From a virus, in IMG/VR virus record IMGVR_UViG_3300029535_000079, positions 1 through 5,410 of that record: 5,410 nt of DNA; one strand, given 5' to 3'. The notes below the pieces were generated by a model, which saw only the letters and a list, made by a program, of their open reading frames with translations, was not told the origin of the DNA and searched no databases. The position numbers were made by a program, and so were the translations under genes. Shown piece after piece: positions 1 through 5,410 of the stretch. Positions within the stretch are counted from its first letter, which is position 1. Every line of letters begins with the position of its first letter.

Positions 1-79
1 CCTGTTTATTCTGCTTCTGCCTTTGATACTACCGCTTCTTTCGCTTTTTCTCTCCTTGTTCCTGCTTCTCTTTTGCCTG
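1..79. repeat. Terminal direct repeat, identical to 5332..5410. Interpreted as a circular-assembly overlap, giving a genome unit of 5331 nt.
   Basis: Base-by-base comparison shows 1..79 equals 5332..5410 (cctgtttattctgcttctgcc...cttttgcctg). One open reading frame runs through the junction without a stop. Confidence 0.9.
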
Positions 80-357
80 ACGTTAAGCTTGGTGCCTGGC
101 TTTCCGACTCCCCTGAGGATTTGCAGAAAGTTATTACTGATGAATTTGACATAGATTCTGATACCCTGAAAGAGTCTAAGGATATGTTGAATTCGTTGAA
201 TAATTCTTCTTCCGTCGATTCTTCTATTGCTGCGGGCGCTTCTGCTCTTCTTCGCGGTCTTTTTCAGAATTTAGGCACGTTTCTTTTTTCTGTTTCTCTT
301 CTTTGCTTCGGTGCTGTTTTTCTCCGAATTCTCATTAGAAAGGCGGTAGACGGATGA
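1..357 (+). CDS. pIII-like protein, C-terminal part (continuation of 4513..5410; bases 1..79 duplicate 5332..5410).
   Basis: It is in frame with 4513..5410 across the junction and ends at TGA 355..357. The C-terminus LFQNLGTFLFSVSLLCFGAVFLRILIRKAVDG is a hydrophobic anchor followed by basic residues. This is the same layout as the Ff pIII C-terminal anchor. The TTG start at 73 in the ORF track is an artefact of the window edge. Confidence 0.7.
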   Translation, partial: PVYSASAFDTTASFAFSLLVPASLLPDVKLGAWLSDSPEDLQKVITDEFDIDSDTLKESKDMLNSLNNSSSVDSSIAAGASALLRGLFQNLGTFLFSVSLLCFGAVFLRILIRKAVDG

Positions 358-485
358 GCTTTATTGACTTTTTTAAGTCCGTTTTTGGGCTTTTTGGTTC
401 CGGTGGCAAACTCGTTATCACTGTTGTCGTTTTGTTTGTAACTCTCGGTATATACAAATTTGTAAAGGATTTGTTGCCATGGTAG
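354..485 (+). CDS. Small hydrophobic protein, 43 aa (MSFIDFFKSVFGLFGSGGKLVITVVVLFVTLGIYKFVKDLLPW). Candidate virion or assembly membrane protein.
   Basis: The ATG overlaps the pIII-like stop (ATGA at 354..357). AAAGG at 339..343 lies 10 nt upstream. It has a single predicted TM segment with Lys residues after it. It is too short to appear in the ORF track. Confidence 0.55.
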   Translation: MSFIDFFKSVFGLFGSGGKLVITVVVLFVTLGIYKFVKDLLPW

Positions 486-643
486 ACTTTGTTGCAACTC
501 TCGGTGTAGTTACTTCGTTTATCTATAAAGTTCTTAATATGCCGTTTTTTCACTTGGGTACTTATGGCGGCTTAGTCCTTATGCTCTTTTTGCTTACTCT
601 TGTTGGTTTCGTTCTCCGTAGTCTTTGGAATGGGGGTGAATAA
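479..643 (+). CDS. Small hydrophobic protein, 54 aa (MVDFVATLGVVTSFIYKVLNMPFFHLGTYGGLVLMLFLLTLVGFVLRSLWNGGE).
   Basis: The ATG at 479 overlaps the end of the preceding ORF by 7 nt. AAAGG at 464..468 lies 10 nt upstream. There are two hydrophobic segments. The stop TAA 641..643 overlaps the next ATG (TAATG). Confidence 0.55.
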   Translation: MVDFVATLGVVTSFIYKVLNMPFFHLGTYGGLVLMLFLLTLVGFVLRSLWNGGE

Positions 644-1257
644 TGATGGAAGTCCCTGCTATTATTAAAACTTGGGTTGATTCTGACGGCGTTACCGTCT
701 ACACAGTGCAGTATAAAGACGGTACTACTTGTGATATGACCGTCCAGCAGTATGACTATCTCAAGGCATCTGCGCATGCTGTCGCTGATATGGACGCTAA
801 AGCCGCTGCTGATTCTTTCTCGGAAGCATCTTCTGCTCCTGAGGACCCTGCGCAGAATATTACTGTATCTCCTGATCTCCGCGACGGTTATGTGCCGGAG
901 GAAGTTGAATTGCCTTTTGAGGGGAGTTTGACCGCTTATGATGACCGCGCAGCAGATTCTCCAGCTTTGTATGCTAATCTCCCTAACGTCTCTAATAGTT
1001 TCACTGCTATTATGGATTGGTTTGGAGATACGTTTTTTATCGAACGTACTGAGACGGTGCACAAGTCCGGTTATACGTCTGAAAGGTACTCCTATAATAG
1101 CTCGACTCAACTTATTCAGCTTCCTTATGAGGAAGATTCCACAACTACGTCTCAAGTTCTCAACCCGCAAGCTTGTGTTTCTGCTTTGCTTGTTGTCCTT
1201 GTTTTCGTCACTACTGTTACATGGATTAAAAACGCGATTTGGGGGCGTATGAGCTAA
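643..1257 (+). CDS. Acidic 204-aa protein with a single C-terminal TM anchor. Function unknown.
   Basis: ORF from the track. The TAATG start overlap is preceded by GGGGGTG. There is no N-terminal signal peptide. The body is rich in Asp/Glu and Ser/Thr. The C-terminus ACVSALLVVLVFVTTVTWIKNAIWGRMS is hydrophobic. The stop overlaps the next ATG (TAATG at 1255..1259). Confidence 0.65.
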   Translation: MMEVPAIIKTWVDSDGVTVYTVQYKDGTTCDMTVQQYDYLKASAHAVADMDAKAAADSFSEASSAPEDPAQNITVSPDLRDGYVPEEVELPFEGSLTAYDDRAADSPALYANLPNVSNSFTAIMDWFGDTFFIERTETVHKSGYTSERYSYNSSTQLIQLPYEEDSTTTSQVLNPQACVSALLVVLVFVTTVTWIKNAIWGRMS

Positions 1258-1370
1258 TGGAAATTTTACCTTTGCAGTATTGTTTCGGCATCTTTTCTGT
1301 CCCCGAAATTGGCTATTTCATTGTCTTCGCTGCTGTTTTCTCTATGTTGGTTCTCCTGCTCCGTCCGTGA
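1257..1370 (+). CDS. Small hydrophobic protein, 37 aa (MEILPLQYCFGIFSVPEIGYFIVFAAVFSMLVLLLRP), similar in size to pVII/pIX.
   Basis: It is coupled to the upstream ORF by a TAATG overlap and has one TM-length hydrophobic core. Size and position suggest a minor coat protein of a filamentous phage, but there is no sequence-level identification. Confidence 0.5.
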   Translation: MEILPLQYCFGIFSVPEIGYFIVFAAVFSMLVLLLRP

Positions 1371-1408
1371 CAGGTGCCATAAATATTTTTATGAAAGGAT
1401 GATGACTT

Positions 1409-1600
1409 CAGGGCGCTACTACTTCTATTCTCGCTACGCTGCTTTCCTTGGTCGGTGAGTTCTTCACGTCGATGATTACTTGGATGGGTCAGCTCATTGA
1501 TTTCTATGAGTCCCAGCCCATTCTCCTCGTTTTTGTGATTCTCACTATCGCGGGCATCGTTCTCCGTATTCTTCGCCGCTGGATTCCCGGTCGTAGTTAA
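1409..1600 (+). CDS. Coat-like protein. Proposed 63-aa product initiating at CAG 1409. The conservative alternatives are TTG 1448 (50 aa) or ATG 1472 (42 aa), all with the same stop.
   Basis: The frame is open from 1406 to TAA 1598..1600 and closed upstream by TGA TGA (1400..1405). The C-terminal part MITWMGQLIDFYESQPILLVFVILTIAGIVLRILRRWIPGRS has an acidic N-side, a TM core and an Arg-rich tail, like a major coat protein. A strong terminator follows. GAAAGGA at 1393..1399 places the expected start 10 nt after AAAGG, which is CAG 1409. ATG 1472 has no comparable SD. Confidence 0.55.
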   Translation, partial: QGATTSILATLLSLVGEFFTSMITWMGQLIDFYESQPILLVFVILTIAGIVLRILRRWIPGRS

Positions 1601-1610
1601 ACGCTGAGAG

Positions 1611-1656
1611 AAAACGCCGCCGACCATTTTTAATGGTCGGCGACGTTTTCTTGTTT
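1611..1656 (+). terminator. Rho-independent terminator or attenuator hairpin between the coat-like gene and the ATPase gene.
   Basis: AAAACGCCGCCGACCATT (1611..1628) pairs with AATGGTCGGCGACGTTTT (1632..1649). There is one C-A mismatch (1617/1643) and a TTT loop, followed by TTTTCTTGTTT. The flanking A and T tracts allow function in both orientations. Confidence 0.75.
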
Positions 1657-1673
1657 GAAAGGATTTATATGTT

Positions 1674-2288
1674 ATGTTTTATGGTATTCTTATCTTTTGT
1701 GTGTGCTTCCTTTTTGTTTATATTGACAACTATTGCAAAAACCCCTACAGATTGGAAGCAGTTGTCGGCTCTAAAGGTTCTGGAAAATCTCTGTATATGT
1801 CTCGTGTTGCTGATAAGTGGCTTCGTAATAATAAGGGTCTTATCTACTCTAATATGGGTATCGGTTATGAATTAGATGCTGAATATTGGAAACAGTCCTT
1901 TGTTCCTGATTCCCTCATTCTCATTGATGAAATTGGTGTGCTGCACTCTAACCGTGATTTTAAGACTATGCCCCGTGAAGCAGTTGAGTTTTTCAAAATG
2001 CAGCGCAAATATCATTTGACGATTATTGTATCGTCTCAGACCATGGACTTTGATAAAAAGATACGTGACCTTTGCGACCGCATTTACCTTTGCAACCGCA
2101 TTGGCTGGTTCTGCCGCCTTACTCCCTATCGCTCTTGTATCGCTATGGAACATCGCCCCGAGGGAGGGCAAGAATTGGTCAACACGGTGCGCAAGGCAGG
2201 GCGGGCAAGGTGGTATACCATCCCCAAGGCCGTGAAGCAGGTGAGTGCTTTAGAATACGATACAGAGCAGATTATTAGTAAGCGATAA
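1674..2288 (+). CDS. Zot / pI-like P-loop morphogenesis ATPase, minimal 204-aa form with an N-terminal hydrophobic segment.
   Basis: Walker A is GSKGSGKS (1767..1790). Walker B is LILIDE. The context (VVGSKGSGKSLY...LILIDEIG...TIIVSSQ) is typical of the Zot/pI family. AAAGG at 1658..1662 lies 11 nt before ATG 1674. An in-frame stop at 1656 excludes any longer N-terminus. Confidence 0.85.
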   Translation: MFYGILIFCVCFLFVYIDNYCKNPYRLEAVVGSKGSGKSLYMSRVADKWLRNNKGLIYSNMGIGYELDAEYWKQSFVPDSLILIDEIGVLHSNRDFKTMPREAVEFFKMQRKYHLTIIVSSQTMDFDKKIRDLCDRIYLCNRIGWFCRLTPYRSCIAMEHRPEGGQELVNTVRKAGRARWYTIPKAVKQVSALEYDTEQIISKR

Positions 2289-2320
2289 TCCTATCCGTTT
2301 TGTTGCGGCGATAGCCGCCG

Positions 2321-2371
2321 AAAAAAAAATCCTCCCCGTGCCTGTTATGGTCGGGGAGGTGTTTTTATTTT
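2321..2371. terminator. Bidirectional rho-independent terminator shared by the convergent genes 1674..2288 (+) and 2370..2606 (-).
   Basis: An A9 tract (2321..2329) precedes the stem CCTCCCCG (2331..2338) / CGGGGAGG (2352..2359), which is followed by TGTTTTTATTTT (2360..2371). A smaller hairpin GCGGC-GATA-GCCGC lies at 2305..2318. Confidence 0.8.
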
Positions 2372-2606
2372 AGAATCTTGTGAATGTTTCTCCATCTGTT
2401 GTTTGCGCGATGTTCTCCCAGAAGATTTTATCCAGATATCTTGTTGTATCAACGTAGTTAATGTCAATACGCTTGATGATATTGAATTCGTAAAACTCTT
2501 CTTTTTCGTTAATTGCTGTGTACGTGAATGCTTTGTATTGATAGTTTTTCGTGTAGACGACTCTTTCCTTGATGACCTTTTTGAGGAATTTTTTTTTGAC
2601 TTTCAT
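2370..2606 (-). CDS. Small basic 78-aa protein, divergent from rep. Candidate regulator or immunity factor, family not recognised.
   Basis: Strong SD AAGGAG (complement of 2615..2620) lies 8 nt before the ATG (complement of 2604..2606). It has its own near-consensus promoter and a terminator. No helix-turn-helix motif is obvious by eye. Confidence 0.7.
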   Translation of the reverse strand: MKVKKKFLKKVIKERVVYTKNYQYKAFTYTAINEKEEFYEFNIIKRIDINYVDTTRYLDKIFWENIAQTTDGETFTRF

Positions 2607-2635
2607 TGTTTTATCTCCTTTCTTTTTATGCTTCT

Positions 2636-2664
2636 ATTGTAGCATAGAAATTTCTATTTGTCAA
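2636..2664 (-). promoter_or_regulatory. Sigma70-type promoter for the 78-aa gene.
   Basis: Read on the - strand, the sequence is TTGACA (2659..2664), a 17-nt spacer, then TACAAT (2636..2641). The spacer contains the perfect palindrome ATAGAAATTTCTAT. Confidence 0.75.
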
Positions 2665-2677
2665 TAGGAAATTCTAT
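2644..2677. promoter_or_regulatory. Two operator-like sites: the perfect 14-bp palindrome ATAGAAATTTCTAT (2644..2657) and its imperfect copy ATAGGAAATTCTAT (2664..2677).
   Basis: Both are seen directly in the sequence. Site 1 sits in the spacer of the - strand promoter. Site 2 abuts its -35 element. The core GAAATTTC recurs at 2861..2868 next to the rep -35. Confidence 0.6.
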
Positions 2678-2738
2678 TTTCTTTTAAAAAAAACGCAGGC
2701 AGTTGCCACGTTTAGTCACGCGTTAGCGTCTCCACCGC

Positions 2739-2854
2739 GTCCCCCGTCCCCGCAAGGGCAAAGCCCTTGCCCTTCCAAAACAGGCTGGTAGGGGCTTCCG
2801 ATACGTAGAGACTGCCGTGACGGCAGGAACGTGGGTGTTCTGTAATACACCCAC
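2739..2854. other. GC-rich structured intergenic region. Candidate replication origin and/or packaging signal.
   Basis: There is a tandem GTCCCC(C) repeat at 2739..2751. Three perfect hairpins follow: GCAAGGGC-AAA-GCCCTTGC (2752..2770), CTGCCG-TGA-CGGCAG (2812..2826) and GTGGGTGT-TCTGTAAT-ACACCCAC (2831..2854). The region is non-coding, sits immediately upstream of rep, and is far more GC-rich than the rest of the genome. Confidence 0.5.
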
Positions 2855-2900
2855 GAAATTGAAATTTCCTCTTGACATTTCATTCATTCTATGGTAACAT
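2855..2900 (+). promoter_or_regulatory. Sigma70-type promoter for rep and the + strand operon, with an adjacent operator-like GAAATTGAAATTTC.
   Basis: TTGACA (2872..2877), a 17-nt spacer, then TAACAT (2895..2900). GAAATTTC at 2861..2868 matches the core of the palindromes at 2644..2677. Confidence 0.65.
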
Positions 2901-2932
2901 TTAGCCATGGAAATGAAAGGTGGTTTTTTTAC

Positions 2933-4069
2933 ATGAAAACGGTTGTTAAACTTGACTATGCTACATTTGCTTTTGAACAGGGTTCAATTTCTATTCCTGA
3001 AATTGAAGGTGCGCTTGCCCAGTGCGACTTGCATTTTGTGCAGGGTTCCAGCACAAGTGAGAATTCCCCTTACAATTCCCCTGCGGGACTTTTCTATAAG
3101 CCTAACAACGGCGCGAAACAGTGTCCGCACTCCTTGCAAGTGTCTGGTCATGGTTGTGAGCTTTTCCGTCCCACCTTGCCGCGACTCGCGGCACTTATGC
3201 AGGATGAACACGAATTCGGTCACTTTTCCCGTCTTGATTTTTGCTTTGATGTTGTTATGACGAAGCAACGGTGGCGCGAGTTCTATTTTGGTGTCATCTC
3301 TGCTTCTGTCGATGAGATGAATAATCCAGAAAAGGCTCGTAAGGTTCGCAAGTTTATGTATCAGGGCTACGGCGATTCTACTACCATTTATATTGGTCGT
3401 AGAAGTTCTTCTGCGGTCTTCTGCCGTATTTATAATAAGTCCTTGCAAGACCCTGAAAAAAAGCTCTGTGTGTCTTCTGGTGTGTTTCTGGATTGTCCCG
3501 ATGATTCCTATATCATTCGCTATGAGCTTGAGCTTAAATATACTTCTCGTGTTAATTCTTCCGGTCGTACTGTTTATGACCCTTCTCCCCTTTTTTGGTT
3601 TTATTACGAAGACCCAGACAAGCTTTATTCCTATCTTCGTAAAGTTTGGAATCGCTACGGGAACGATTTTCTTCTGCCCGATGGTTGGGAAGATATGGAA
3701 TTTTTGACTGATATTGAAGCTTGTAATATTCAGTTCGTTAAGGACTTATTGCATCCCATTAGTAATGATCTTGCTCAAAAGTTTTCCGTTTCTATTCATA
3801 CTGAGGAACAAAAATTGTCTTATGTCGCCAATACCTTTGGTCATCGTATTATTGATATTCTTCTTTATCGTCCTGATCTTGTTTTTTCCGTTTGTTGTAA
3901 GTGGGAGCGTTTTTACAATGAGAGTCTACCGTTTTCTCCCCTGGCATTTTCACTTGAAGTTTCACAATTCGCTGAGTCTTCGCGAATTGCCGCTGATGAA
4001 TTCCGTGAAGTTGCTGATTTCCCCTCTTCCTTTAGTGAAGATGGGTTTGAAGATATAACTTTATTCTGA
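2933..4069 (+). CDS. Rolling-circle replication initiator, Rep_trans-like (the family of RstA and pT181 RepC), 378 aa.
   Basis: Motifs recognised by eye are N-terminal VKLDYATFAF, then FSRLDFCFDV, CRIYNKS and IIRYELELKY. These fit the pattern of the replication initiation factor family (Pfam Rep_trans) as I recall it. I place the start at ATG 2933 because GAAAGGTGG (2915..2923) lies upstream. The track start at 2891 lies inside the promoter spacer. The gene ends in tandem stops TGA TGA (4067..4072). Confidence 0.75.
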   Translation: MKTVVKLDYATFAFEQGSISIPEIEGALAQCDLHFVQGSSTSENSPYNSPAGLFYKPNNGAKQCPHSLQVSGHGCELFRPTLPRLAALMQDEHEFGHFSRLDFCFDVVMTKQRWREFYFGVISASVDEMNNPEKARKVRKFMYQGYGDSTTIYIGRRSSSAVFCRIYNKSLQDPEKKLCVSSGVFLDCPDDSYIIRYELELKYTSRVNSSGRTVYDPSPLFWFYYEDPDKLYSYLRKVWNRYGNDFLLPDGWEDMEFLTDIEACNIQFVKDLLHPISNDLAQKFSVSIHTEEQKLSYVANTFGHRIIDILLYRPDLVFSVCCKWERFYNESLPFSPLAFSLEVSQFAESSRIAADEFREVADFPSSFSEDGFEDITLF

Positions 4070-4087
4070 TGAAAGGATGGTCGCTTT

Positions 4088-4330
4088 ATGAAGGTTACTG
4101 TAGTTGGTAAGTCCCGCCGCGCTGGTACATCAAAGCAGGGTAAAGACTATGATTTTACTACTCTCATGGCCGAATATTCGATGCGTTCAAACGATGACAA
4201 TGACGGCGTGCAGGTTGATAGAATCAATGTTGATTCTCGCATGATGCCCTATGCGCTCATTGTCGTTGGCGCTATGTATGACCTCGACTTTGACCGCAAC
4301 GGATATCTCCTTGGAATTGAGGAAGTCTAA
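4088..4330 (+). CDS. ssDNA-binding protein, gene V protein (g5p)-like, 80 aa.
   Basis: Size and position directly after rep fit g5p. The N-terminal MKVTVVGKSRRAGTSKQGKDYDF resembles Ff g5p IKVEIKPSQAQFTTRSGVSRQGKPYSL (shared S-[KR]-Q-G-K-x-Y), recalled from memory. AAAGG at 4072..4076 lies 11 nt before the ATG. Confidence 0.65.
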   Translation: MKVTVVGKSRRAGTSKQGKDYDFTTLMAEYSMRSNDDNDGVQVDRINVDSRMMPYALIVVGAMYDLDFDRNGYLLGIEEV

Positions 4331-4366
4331 CTTCCTTTGTTCAAACCCAAATTTCATTTCCTATGG

Positions 4367-4386
4367 GAGAGCGGTTTGCCGCTCTC
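4367..4386 (+). other. Perfect 8-bp hairpin GAGAGCGG-TTTG-CCGCTCTC, 4 nt upstream of the tRNA 5' end.
   Basis: The inverted repeat is seen directly. There is no trailing T-run, so it is not a classical terminator. It may be a processing or structural element. Confidence 0.5.
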
Positions 4387-4390
4387 ACAT

Positions 4391-4464
4391 GGCGGGGTGG
4401 TGCAACGGTAGCACGTCGCGCTCTGAACGCGAAACTGTAGGTTCAAATCCTAACCCCGCAACCA
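4391..4464 (+). tRNA. tRNA with anticodon CUG (Gln by anticodon) on an initiator tRNA-fMet-like body, with CCA encoded.
   Basis: Manual cloverleaf follows. Acceptor GGCGGGG (4391..4397) pairs with CCCCGCA (4454..4460), with a G1-A72 mismatch. T8 is present. D arm is GTGC-AACGGTA-GCAC. Anticodon arm is TCGCG-CTCTGAA-CGCGA, with anticodon CTG at 4423..4425. Variable region is AACT. T arm is GTAGG-TTCAAAT-CCTAA, with a G49-A65 mismatch. Discriminator is A73, followed by CCA at 4462..4464. The conserved U8, A14, G18G19, U33, GTTC and A58 are all present. Confidence 0.9.
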
Positions 4465-4465
4465 A

Positions 4466-4484
4466 AACGGACTTGACCTCCGTT
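4466..4484 (+). other. Small hairpin AACGGA-CTTGACC-TCCGTT directly after the tRNA CCA end.
   Basis: The 6-bp inverted repeat is seen directly and is followed by ATT. It may be a weak terminator or a 3' processing structure. Confidence 0.35.
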
Positions 4485-4512
4485 ATTCGATGTCGCGAAA
4501 GGTGGTGGCGAA

Positions 4513-5410
4513 GTGAAAAAAAAGCAGCGGTGCTTGTTTAAGCGCTTCGCCGCCCTTCTCGCGTCTCTGATGGTCTCTCTTTCTTTGTGTACTCCTTGTT
4601 TTGCAGCTGACACGGAAATGGTTATGCCGTCTTTAGATGACTTTTATAGTCATCATGGGTCTTGGTTTGTTTGGCGTAAGCTTATTTATAGCGGCATAGA
4701 TTGTTTTGAGCTTCTTTGCTCTCCTATTGCTGTTTCTGGTTCTTCTTATACATTGCCGTATTCTATTTCTTATTCTTCAGATGCGTTTGATGTTTCTTAT
4801 TTAGCTAACGACTCTGGCTTAGCTTATGATTATGCTTGCGCTTTTCCTTATCCTCTTCGTGGTGCTTCTGGTCTTTGGTCTGAACTTCCCTCTTTCCCTG
4901 TTGGTTTTGGCTTTTCCCCTCAAACTTCTGTTGTTCGCGTTTATTCTACTTCTGCTCAACCTTCTGGGACTTATGGCTTTTTAACTTCTTCTTTTAGCCG
5001 TTCAGACCGTAGTCTTTCTTTCGGTAATACTGCCGGTTCTTCTTCTGGCTCTTCTACTGATACTTTAGATTCTTTCACTTTTTCTTCCCCCTTTTATTCA
5101 TATCCTTTTGCTATTCGTGAATCTTCTTCTTCTTCTGCAAGCGGCTATGTTTTACAGGGTGGTGACTCTTCGTTTATTGTTCCTCCTAATGCTTATTCTA
5201 ACTTGAGTAATATAAATCTCAATTCTAATCGTTATCTTTTGGGGACTCATTCTTTTGTCCCTTATCCATCCGGATATACTATTCCTTCTTCTGATATCGG
5301 CTTTGTTTTTGTGCAAAAGCCTTCTTCCTCTCCTGTTTATTCTGCTTCTGCCTTTGATACTACCGCTTCTTTCGCTTTTTCTCTCCTTGTTCCTGCTTCT
5401 CTTTTGCCTG
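4513..5410 (+). CDS. pIII-like minor coat / adsorption protein, N-terminal part. It runs off the window end and continues at 80..357 after circularisation, about 391 aa in total.
   Basis: GTG start at 4513 lies 10 nt after AAAGG of GAAAGGTGG (4497..4505). The frame is open from 4513 to 5410 by my codon-by-codon read, with an upstream in-frame stop at 4474. The N-terminus VKKKQRCLFKRFAALLASLMVSLSLCTPCFAAD looks like a signal peptide. Ser-rich linker-like runs follow (SSSGSS, ESSSSSASG). The ORF track omits it because it is open-ended. Confidence 0.7.
   Translation, partial: MKKKQRCLFKRFAALLASLMVSLSLCTPCFAADTEMVMPSLDDFYSHHGSWFVWRKLIYSGIDCFELLCSPIAVSGSSYTLPYSISYSSDAFDVSYLANDSGLAYDYACAFPYPLRGASGLWSELPSFPVGFGFSPQTSVVRVYSTSAQPSGTYGFLTSSFSRSDRSLSFGNTAGSSSGSSTDTLDSFTFSSPFYSYPFAIRESSSSSASGYVLQGGDSSFIVPPNAYSNLSNINLNSNRYLLGTHSFVPYPSGYTIPSSDIGFVFVQKPSSSPVYSASAFDTTASFAFSLLVPASLLP
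5332..5410. repeat. Second copy of the terminal direct repeat (same sequence as 1..79).
   Basis: Identical 79-mer at both window ends. It lies inside coding sequence, so it is redundancy of a circular molecule and not an LTR or ITR. Confidence 0.9.

Follow-up and report, generated by a model that had tools for sequence, protein, structure and literature searches.

How is a phage coat protein made when its gene offers the ribosome no conventional start codon? This question is raised by the 5,410-nucleotide (nt) stretch of DNA analyzed here (positions 1 to 5,410 of IMG/VR virus record IMGVR_UViG_3300029535_000079; hereafter the window), a small gut inovirus in which a coat-like gene has no ATG, GTG or TTG start and opens one codon past two in-frame TGA stops, the frame at positions 1400-1417 reading TGA TGA CTT CAG GGC GCT... 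The same genome encodes a tRNA with the anticodon CUG, which an earlier note, made from the letters of the window, had taken for a reprogrammed initiator that starts translation at CAG. The comparative data reported below support this proposal, in that a CAG start and the tRNA occur together, and from these sequence comparisons we put at roughly 85% the probability that the tRNA is a phage-encoded, dedicated initiator tRNA that starts the coat at CAG.

The window's other genes begin with ATG or GTG placed 9-11 nt after the same Shine-Dalgarno (SD) motif, GAAAGGA, that precedes the coat frame (it is also found before the genes starting at 1674 and 4088), and the only SD followed by CAG in the window that opens an open reading frame (ORF) without an upstream canonical start is that of the coat-like gene. 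CAG was invariant across 52 loci of the window's clade (42 distinct start regions), while the codon before it varied (CTT, TTT, CAT), as did the codons after it, in both sequence and number. From CAG to the first canonical start codon, the changes within the clade were mostly at third positions (TCT/TCC, ATT/ATC, GCA/GCT/GCC, ACN), with one TCC to AGT serine switch; because these substitutions are mostly synonymous, this stretch is coding and appears to be translated. The coat role itself is inferred from the protein's size, hydrophobic core and basic C-terminus, and from its homology to the coats of relatives. Since the window's protein had no match in Pfam or PHROG, the name 'coat' keeps that status here; among the coat proteins searched, the only match was that of lineage L006 to phrog_2186, a virion structural protein. 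Re-initiation after a mini-ORF, ATG AAA GGA TGA (1391-1402), was considered and rejected, its ATG being AAG in L001 (the window's clade) and the mini-ORF being missing in other lineages. Two further observations concern this region. An out-of-frame ATG ATG abuts the SD and opens a 19-codon ORF (1399-1458) that overlaps the coat start, and conservation of the spacer TGATGACTT within the clade reaches at least 95%, higher than that of the coding sequence after it.

The presence of the tRNA, as claimed in the earlier note, was confirmed by two programs. The Rfam tRNA model RF00005 matched it over its full length (4391-4461; 53.1 bits, gathering score 29, E 1e-9), and ARAGORN reported a single tRNA in the window, Gln(ctg). 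ARAGORN placed it at 4392-4460 in an odd 69-nt register, with a fully paired acceptor, a 1-nt spacer and a 4-bp T stem; this register, which the single-sequence minimum-free-energy fold also adopts, was rejected, and the canonical register is preferred because both Rfam and covariation back it. In the canonical register, non-standard pairs occur at 1:72 (G.A) and 49:65 (G.A). The sequences with which the note had compared the tRNA proved accurate, E. coli tRNA-fMet being letter-perfect against the metZWV locus and the loop of E. coli tRNA-Gln(CUG) being TTCTGAT as stated. The 3′ acceptor strand, discriminator and CCA (CCCCGCA-A-CCA) are indeed identical to those of tRNA-fMet, and the 5′ strand differs at nt 1 alone; G2:C71, C3:G70, G4:C69 and A73 are all present, and the anticodon loop is CTCTGAA where tRNA-fMet has CTCATAA. 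The idea of an initiator-like body held for the acceptor end and its unpaired 1:72, an initiator trait, and failed for the loops: the D loop of 7 nt and the variable loop of 4 nt are those of the tRNA-Gln class with the acceptor UGCGGGA/UCCCGCA-A-CCA. Two other initiator traits are absent, namely the CAU anticodon that carries MetRS identity (CTG here) and A11:U24, purine 11 opposite pyrimidine 24 (U11:A24 here). The anticodon agrees with elongator tRNA-Gln (CUG/UUG; U35, G36), and the U1:A72 pair of elongator tRNA-Gln is replaced by G1.A72. By blastn against E. coli, the best matches were genes annotated as tRNA-Met, with 79-80% identity, at a median of four places per genome, the one inspected lying within the metZWV initiator cluster. 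Global identity was 78% to tRNA-fMet, 60% to E. coli tRNA-Gln and 79% to the best environmental ordinary tRNA-Gln, and as a means of settling the ancestry of the tRNA (initiator or Gln) it was set aside as indecisive. Hairpins stand on both sides of the window tRNA: one at 4367-4386 (8-bp stem, UUUG loop) ends 4 nt before its 5′ end, and one at 4467-4483 (5-bp stem) begins 3 nt past the CCA. In other lineages, a G/C hairpin and a T run directly follow the CCA (e.g. AAGGGGCCTTTCCCCTTTTT in L180).

Homologues of the window tRNA were found in four pig inoviruses, in bajarodino virus 50, in about 40 IMG/VR contigs of the same clade and in many metagenome and genome contigs. An alignment of 45 distinct homologous 74-nt tRNAs was used to analyze covariation on the cloverleaf. 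On the cloverleaf 92.2% of cells pair, as against 35-50% with slid partners, compensatory changes occur in 12 of 21 pairs, and none of 500 shuffles attained the observed pairing and covariation values. The tRNA is thus a maintained gene and not a chance match, and the note's argument for a maintained fold, with no decaying pseudogene, stands. A standard pair at 1:72 was found in none of the 45 tRNAs (G, C or A is opposite A72), so the broken pair is a family feature, and it is what distinguishes the phage tRNAs. Scans of metagenomes and genomes for tRNAs with the 3′ end CCCGCAACCA and an anticodon middle base other than A gave two kinds: ordinary tRNA-Gln with U1:A72, all on contigs without the morphogenesis ATPase Zot, versus tRNAs with a 1:72 mismatch, all of which adjoin Zot where the contig is long enough. 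Other resemblances to initiators did not extend to the family. The three G:C anticodon-stem pairs to which the note had pointed are present in the window (TCGCG/CGCGA; 29:41, 30:40 and 31:39 are G:C, C:G and G:C), but 29:41 is A:U in 40 of the 45 and 31:39 varies. At 11:24 every one of the 45 has U:A, and A11:U24 occurs only in L176 and L278. On these counts, neither the three G:C pairs nor A11:U24 is a family feature. The change at 11:24, which the note had read as compensatory, does give a U:A pair, which is of elongator type, but A11:U24 is itself an initiator hallmark. Members with a CUG anticodon have the loop sizes of ordinary tRNA-Gln, and the D arms of L177, L190 and L176/L278, whose anticodons are UUG, CUC or UUC, resemble those of tRNA-Glu. 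L190 has the D arm GUCU/GGAC, U13.G22 and a 4-nt variable loop; U13.G22 recurs in L176, and L176 and L278 combine A11:U24 with a GGG/CCC anticodon stem. U35 is retained in every inovirus anticodon, and position 36 is G, C or A.

Some candidates did not enter the family. A pattern made from the D arm alone was too general in IMG/VR (among the matches listed, mostly tRNA-Trp of large phages), and the pattern matches L165 and L242 both look partial, ARAGORN giving no tRNA on L165. One member of the window's clade, L155 (IMGVR_UViG_2974633544_000001), has an aberrant tRNA, from either decay or sequence error: its D loop is shortened, its anticodon loop has 8 nt (CTACTGAA) and 7:66 is mismatched. 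The coat start there is still CAG.

Inoviruses often integrate at tRNA genes (PMC8530359), and the tRNA-like sequence could accordingly mark an attP site for integration, or be a host tRNA copy undergoing decay. The metagenome scan did return tRNA-fMet 3′ halves beside unrelated sequence (L168, L171, L182, L184, L204), and in L223 and L269 a second tRNA-like sequence abuts the phage tRNA. The phage tRNA, though, is full length in circular genomes, its anticodon loop is conserved and its cloverleaf is kept by the compensatory changes described above; no integrase family was found in the window with Pfam or PHROG, and an attachment site would leave the match to the start codon unexplained. We regard this origin as highly improbable. 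As a separate observation, the initiator-type 3′ halves joined to unrelated sequence (L168, L171, L182, L184, L204/L245 and L203) are probably att-site duplications from integrated elements. Full tRNA-fMet-type bodies with C1.A72 and a non-CAU anticodon were also seen on chromosomal or large contigs: CGU in L284 (Bartonella choladocola) and L209, CCU in L287 (an alphaproteobacterium metagenome-assembled genome, MAG) and CUU in L289 (a Noviherbaspirillum MAG). Each of these anticodons differs from CAU by a single base, at position 35.

To examine the relation between anticodon and start codon, we took 24 lineages representative of the 1:72-mismatch kind and set the anticodon against the codon found in the coat frame at SD+7 to SD+10. 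This codon was the complement of the anticodon in 24 of 24. The anticodon CUG is accompanied by CAG in the window, L001, L006, L279, L180, L216, L283, L191, L253, L267, L243, L214 and L282; AUG by CAU in L219; UUG by CAA in L177, L225 and L281; CUC by GAG in L176, L190, L280, L277 and L290; and UUC by GAA in L278 and L201. Two natural swaps were found among them. L243 and L219 share TGA AAG GTG GAA TGT CTT and then read CAG and CAT, respectively, and the tRNAs of L176 and L278 differ at C34/U34 alone, their coats starting with GAG and GAA. A sixth combination was provided by L332, which was found via Zot alone and is circular and complete, its ends repeating over 76 nt. Its tRNA (Rfam, 51.5 bits) has the anticodon CUA and a U1.C72 mismatch; the first of its two coat paralogues starts with ATG, and the second opens, after AGGAGG and 8 nt, with TAG ACT ACT GTC, homologous to CAG GAA ACT ACT GTT in L214. 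The pairs of anticodon and start are therefore six (CUG/CAG, UUG/CAA, AUG/CAU, CUC/GAG, UUC/GAA and CUA/UAG). Because the start codon matches each anticodon, these viruses appear to define private start codons that are neither AUG nor methionine codons. The tRNA of L219, with its AUG anticodon, has A73 and not C73. Identity of tRNA-His requires C73, and as an elongator the L219 tRNA would misread His codons. The base before the private codon (position 1408 in the window) is U opposite A37 in 23 of the 24 lineages (C in L201), and in L332 it is G, at 4206, opposite C37; this apparent pairing of the −1 base with nt 37 hints at a four-base start signal.

Could the coat be made without the phage tRNA? 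Host tRNA-fMet might initiate weakly at CAG, most codons initiating at a low level in E. coli, or ribosomes might start at the out-of-frame ATG(s) at 1399/1402 beside the SD and undergo a +1 shift at ACT-T-CAG; the window, L243, L219, L267, L281, L180, L279, L283 and L006 do have an A/TTG that precedes the private codon by 10 nt. Codons not near-cognate to AUG, however, reach only 0.01-1% of AUG initiation with the normal initiator in E. coli (bioRxiv 10.1101/063800), a level implausible for a major virion protein. The upstream NTG codons lie 0-3 nt from the SD, and L282 has none. In L176 and L278, the NTG near the start is only a TTG in another frame that overlaps positions −2 to 0, and the presumed slip site is neither shifty nor conserved (ACT T, TTT T, CAT C). 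In 10 of the 24 lineages there is no ATG, GTG or TTG from the upstream in-frame stop to the private codon, and in L282 the only such codons lie at least 26 codons upstream. Tracking of the anticodon by the start codon would then be a coincidence repeated at least five times. Production of the coat without the tRNA is therefore very unlikely in our judgment.

We then asked whether the type of start codon follows the presence of the tRNA. Clade contigs that cover both regions all carry tRNA(CUG), and the four clade contigs without it are linear fragments that end before the tRNA region. Bajarodino viruses 79 and 60 and Dulem virus 75, whose Zot is 57-59% identical and whose coats are homologous, have no tRNA, and their coats start with ATG or GTG behind an SD (MEGASTT..., METTTS...). 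The Met of such M-E-G/T beginnings would not be removable, and a private start would give the same protein minus Met. The covariation of tRNA and coat-start CAG predicted in the earlier note was thus observed, extending to six pairs, with ATG or GTG in tRNA-less relatives. A sample of 46 new loci retrieved by Zot alone, independently of any tRNA pattern, gave the same picture: 44 had no tRNA, and 53 of 60 coat-like ORFs had a canonical start and an SD. The two loci with a tRNA were L332 and L322. In L322 the tRNA (CUG, C1.A72) is followed by GGAGG, 7 nt and a CAG that opens a signal-peptide protein, and the coat also starts with CAG. In L177 (2514..) and L225 (3811..), a second gene of at least 300 amino acids (aa), with a signal peptide and a CAA start, lies directly 3′ of the tRNA. 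As judged from these three lineages, the private start codon appears to extend beyond the coat. In many lineages the tRNA lies 26-56 nt upstream of the coat start, and where the two adjoin tRNA and coat mRNA would come from one transcript. Taken together, it is likely that gut inoviruses of Clostridia carry a family of natural orthogonal initiator tRNAs, with the private starts CAG, CAA, CAU, GAG, GAA and UAG used for the coat and for other virion or secreted proteins.

Pairs of coat paralogues in tandem, with a private start in one copy and ATG in the other, occur in L191, L206, L214 (3984-4181 and 4191-4364), L219, L243, L253 and L332. The private-start copy comes first in all of these but L332, where it is second, and private-start copies carry a Thr-rich N-terminal extension of 5-7 residues.

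According to a simpler explanation, the tRNA would be an ordinary phage elongator tRNA-Gln that aids CAG decoding, and the coat start would be TTG 1448, a GTG within the SD or a codon further downstream. ARAGORN labels the molecule tRNA-Gln, its D- and variable-loop sizes are those of the ordinary tRNA-Gln class, to whose best member it is 79% identical, and internal codons in the phage number 25 CAG versus 11 CAA; a cellular tRNA-Gln with C1.A72 is also known (L285). None of this explains why start codons track six anticodons, why the pair-restoring U1 is absent from the phage copies or why tRNA-less relatives start with ATG or GTG. In addition, TTG 1448, the first in-frame TTG, has no SD and is missing in many clade members, the stretch upstream of it substitutes like coding sequence, and an elongator with an AUG or CUA anticodon would misread His codons or suppress stops. 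We therefore think it very unlikely that the tRNA serves elongation only.

Several points weigh against a dedicated initiator tRNA. The family lacks two hallmarks of E. coli initiators, 11:24 being U:A in 45 of 45 and 29:41 A:U in 40 of 45, and, according to PMC6393288, loss of the three G:C pairs abolishes initiator function in E. coli. A broken 1:72 is not confined to phages, as a planctomycete chromosomal tRNA-Gln(CUG) (L285, 2363-2436, in a cluster of six tRNAs) has C1.A72. Three contigs (L291, L292 and L293) have SD+CAG coat starts and no tRNA by ARAGORN or Rfam; these contigs have no terminal repeats and are either incomplete or true exceptions. The SD of L191, L214, L243, L219, L277, L290 and L201 contains or adjoins a GTG or ATG that is in frame, and a canonical start there is ruled out by the SD spacing of 0-3 nt alone. 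Most of the distant members came from searches with patterns in which CCCGCAACCA is fixed (in one scan also GCGGG), and because such patterns fix part of the acceptor stem, the invariance of 2:71 to 6:67 is partly by construction. Finally, given the 25 internal CAG codons, the tRNA may have an additional role in elongation.

If the tRNA is an initiator, its transcription would be part of a long + strand operon, and tRNA-processing enzymes of the host would release it from the transcript. Its charging, with Gln or Glu, would fall to a host enzyme that recognizes U35 and G36, either GlnRS or a non-discriminating GluRS. By the rules of E. coli, the unpaired 1:72 together with G2:C71, C3:G70 and A73 would keep it from EF-Tu, and the same acceptor elements would make it a candidate substrate of the host formyltransferase; Lee et al. 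in 1991 and Guillon et al. in 1992 reportedly found that acceptor-end elements in E. coli direct formylation and disfavour EF-Tu. On the ribosome, the tRNA would next occupy the P site at the CAG located 9 nt after the coat SD, and the most abundant virion protein would begin with a residue other than Met, at a start codon usable only in phage-infected cells. Charging by the host Gln/Glu (Glx) enzymes, with Gln or Glu as the first residue, is suggested by the fact that all of the anticodons keep U35. U35 with position 36 makes up the anticodon part of the GlnRS/GluRS identity sets, the 1-72 mismatch and R11:Y24 are formyltransferase elements, and U1:A72 is an identity element for GlnRS, GluRS2 and GatCAB, the last of which normally needs it (PMC9976931). 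In E. coli, giving tRNA-fMet a U35A36 (CUA) anticodon leads to charging with Gln and to initiation at the codon complementary to that anticodon (PMC2268962).

The features of the window are collected in the table. Positions 1-79 equal 5332-5410, and because the ends repeat over these 79 nt, the window represents a circular genome of about 5331 nt. It has the characters of an Inovirus (Tubulavirales), namely a small circle, a Zot-like ATPase, a rolling-circle Rep and a small hydrophobic coat, and its identity to four pig-faeces genomes deposited in GenBank as 'Inovirus sp.' is 81-84%. The long transcription unit on the + strand includes the tRNA, which comes after the best promoter-like site of that strand; this site could drive rep, the rstB-like gene, the tRNA and the structural genes as a single transcript. 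A palindrome at 2634-2667 is flanked by divergent promoter-like sites (2636-2664 on the − strand and 2872-2900 on the + strand), and the 78-aa ORF at 2370-2606 on the minus strand had no family match; together these are possibly a repressor/operator switch, such as is annotated in bajarodino and Dulem relatives. The intergenic region before rep (2700-2830) is G+C-rich and contains a perfect hairpin (ccccgcaagggcaaagcccttgc...); it could serve as an origin, in packaging or in recombination.

Table. Features of the window (positions in nt; strand given where assigned)
Feature	Position	Strand	Details and basis
SD of the coat-like gene, GAAAGGA	1393..1399	+	Repeat-family match
Two in-frame stops, TGA TGA	1400..1405	+	Directly upstream of the coat frame
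Proposed start codon, CAG	1409..1411	+	Follows the SD by 9 nt; complementary to the anticodon of the tRNA
Coat-like gene	1409..1600	+	63 codons and stop; QGATTSILATLLSLVGEFFTSMITWMGQLIDFYESQPILLVFVILTIAGIVLRILRRWIPGRS
Strong terminator-like hairpin	1618..1652	+	11-bp stem (hairpin at 1618-1642), T-rich tail; directly 3′ of the coat-like gene
Zot-like morphogenesis ATPase	1674..2288		PF05707 and phrog_197 matches
Promoter-like site, best on the + strand	2872..2900	+	TTGACA-17-TAACAT with TG
Rep_trans rolling-circle initiator	2933..4069		Rep_trans and phrog_27843 matches
RstB-like protein	4088..4330		phrog_929 match
tRNA gene	4391..4464	+	CCA encoded at 4462-4464; Rfam RF00005, ARAGORN, covariation over 45 homologues
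Anticodon CTG (CUG)	4423..4425	+	Loop CTCTGAA

The genome collection scanned yielded no member of the clade to which the window belongs, and the assignment of the window's host consequently comes from relatives alone. In that scan, relatives carrying the tRNA were found in assemblies of Oscillospiraceae, Oscillibacter (including the cultured Oscillibacter sp. MSJ-31), Acutalibacter and Lachnospiraceae, as well as in one bin labelled Flexilinea sp. (Chloroflexota; L290, CUC/GAG) and one unclassified bin (L279). We infer that the host of the window is a gut member of the Clostridia; gut inoviruses that Firmicutes CRISPR spacers target are on record (PMC8530359). Oscillibacter sp. MSJ-31, with the element L283 (NZ_JAHLPT010000037.1), offers a cultured host candidate.

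To our knowledge, all bacterial translation starts use tRNA-fMet(CAU) at AUG or near-cognate codons, and in the literature we found no description of an inovirus tRNA acting at initiation, nor of a natural non-CAU initiator tRNA. If the proposed role is true, this would be the first natural, virus-made expansion of the start-codon code and a new kind of genetic-code variation, in which a virus initiator tRNA serves unrelated codons and a first residue other than Met. The phage would have a private switch over its most abundant protein, and the family would supply ready-made orthogonal pairs of initiator and start codon for synthetic biology, comparable to those built in the laboratory. Gene callers overlook such coat genes: in the annotations of bajarodino virus 50 and of the four porcine relatives in GenBank, both the coat coding sequence and the tRNA are missing.

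Compared with bacterial tRNA-fMet, the phage tRNAs share the 1:72 mismatch, G2:C71, C3:G70, G4:C69, A73 and an encoded CCA, and they differ in 11:24 (U:A), in the lack of conservation of the three G:C pairs and in loop sizes; because the anticodon is not CAU, MetRS identity is lost. With elongator tRNA-Gln/Glu they share NUG or NUC anticodons that keep U35, and with ordinary tRNA-Gln (acceptor UGCGGGA) also G10 and the loop sizes (7 nt in the D loop; 4 nt in the variable loop, where nt 47 is missing). Unlike tRNA-Gln/Glu, they never have U at position 1 opposite A72, so that the GatCAB/GluRS2 pair is absent, and they adjoin and match a start codon; unlike E. coli tRNA-Gln (G73), they have A73. 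As with other phage tRNAs (codon-usage helpers, anticodon-nuclease escape variants, suppressors in recoded phages), a virus tRNA would alter how messages are decoded. Those tRNAs, however, act at elongation or stop codons in large double-stranded DNA phages, whereas that of the window belongs to a 5.3-kb phage of single-stranded DNA type and apparently acts at initiation. The nearest known counterparts are laboratory constructs, namely the amber initiator tRNA and engineered phages that require it. Schulman and Pelka in 1985, and Varshney and RajBhandary in 1990 and 1992, reportedly described E. coli tRNA-fMet with altered anticodons. Phages have since been engineered to depend on such anticodon-mutant initiator tRNAs (bioRxiv 10.1101/2024.07.29.605542). 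Like the engineered mutants, the phage tRNAs combine acceptor-end initiator determinants with a non-CAU anticodon that keeps U35, would serve a complementary non-AUG start, as deduced here from sequence, and are expected to be charged by a Glx enzyme and not by MetRS; L332 would be the natural CUA/UAG counterpart of the amber initiator. Unlike those mutants, most of the phage tRNAs have neither A11:U24 nor conserved three G:C pairs, and have a D loop of 7 nt and a variable loop of 4 nt. The phage system, known here from sequence, is also natural and virus-encoded, and comprises at least six pairs of anticodon and start codon.

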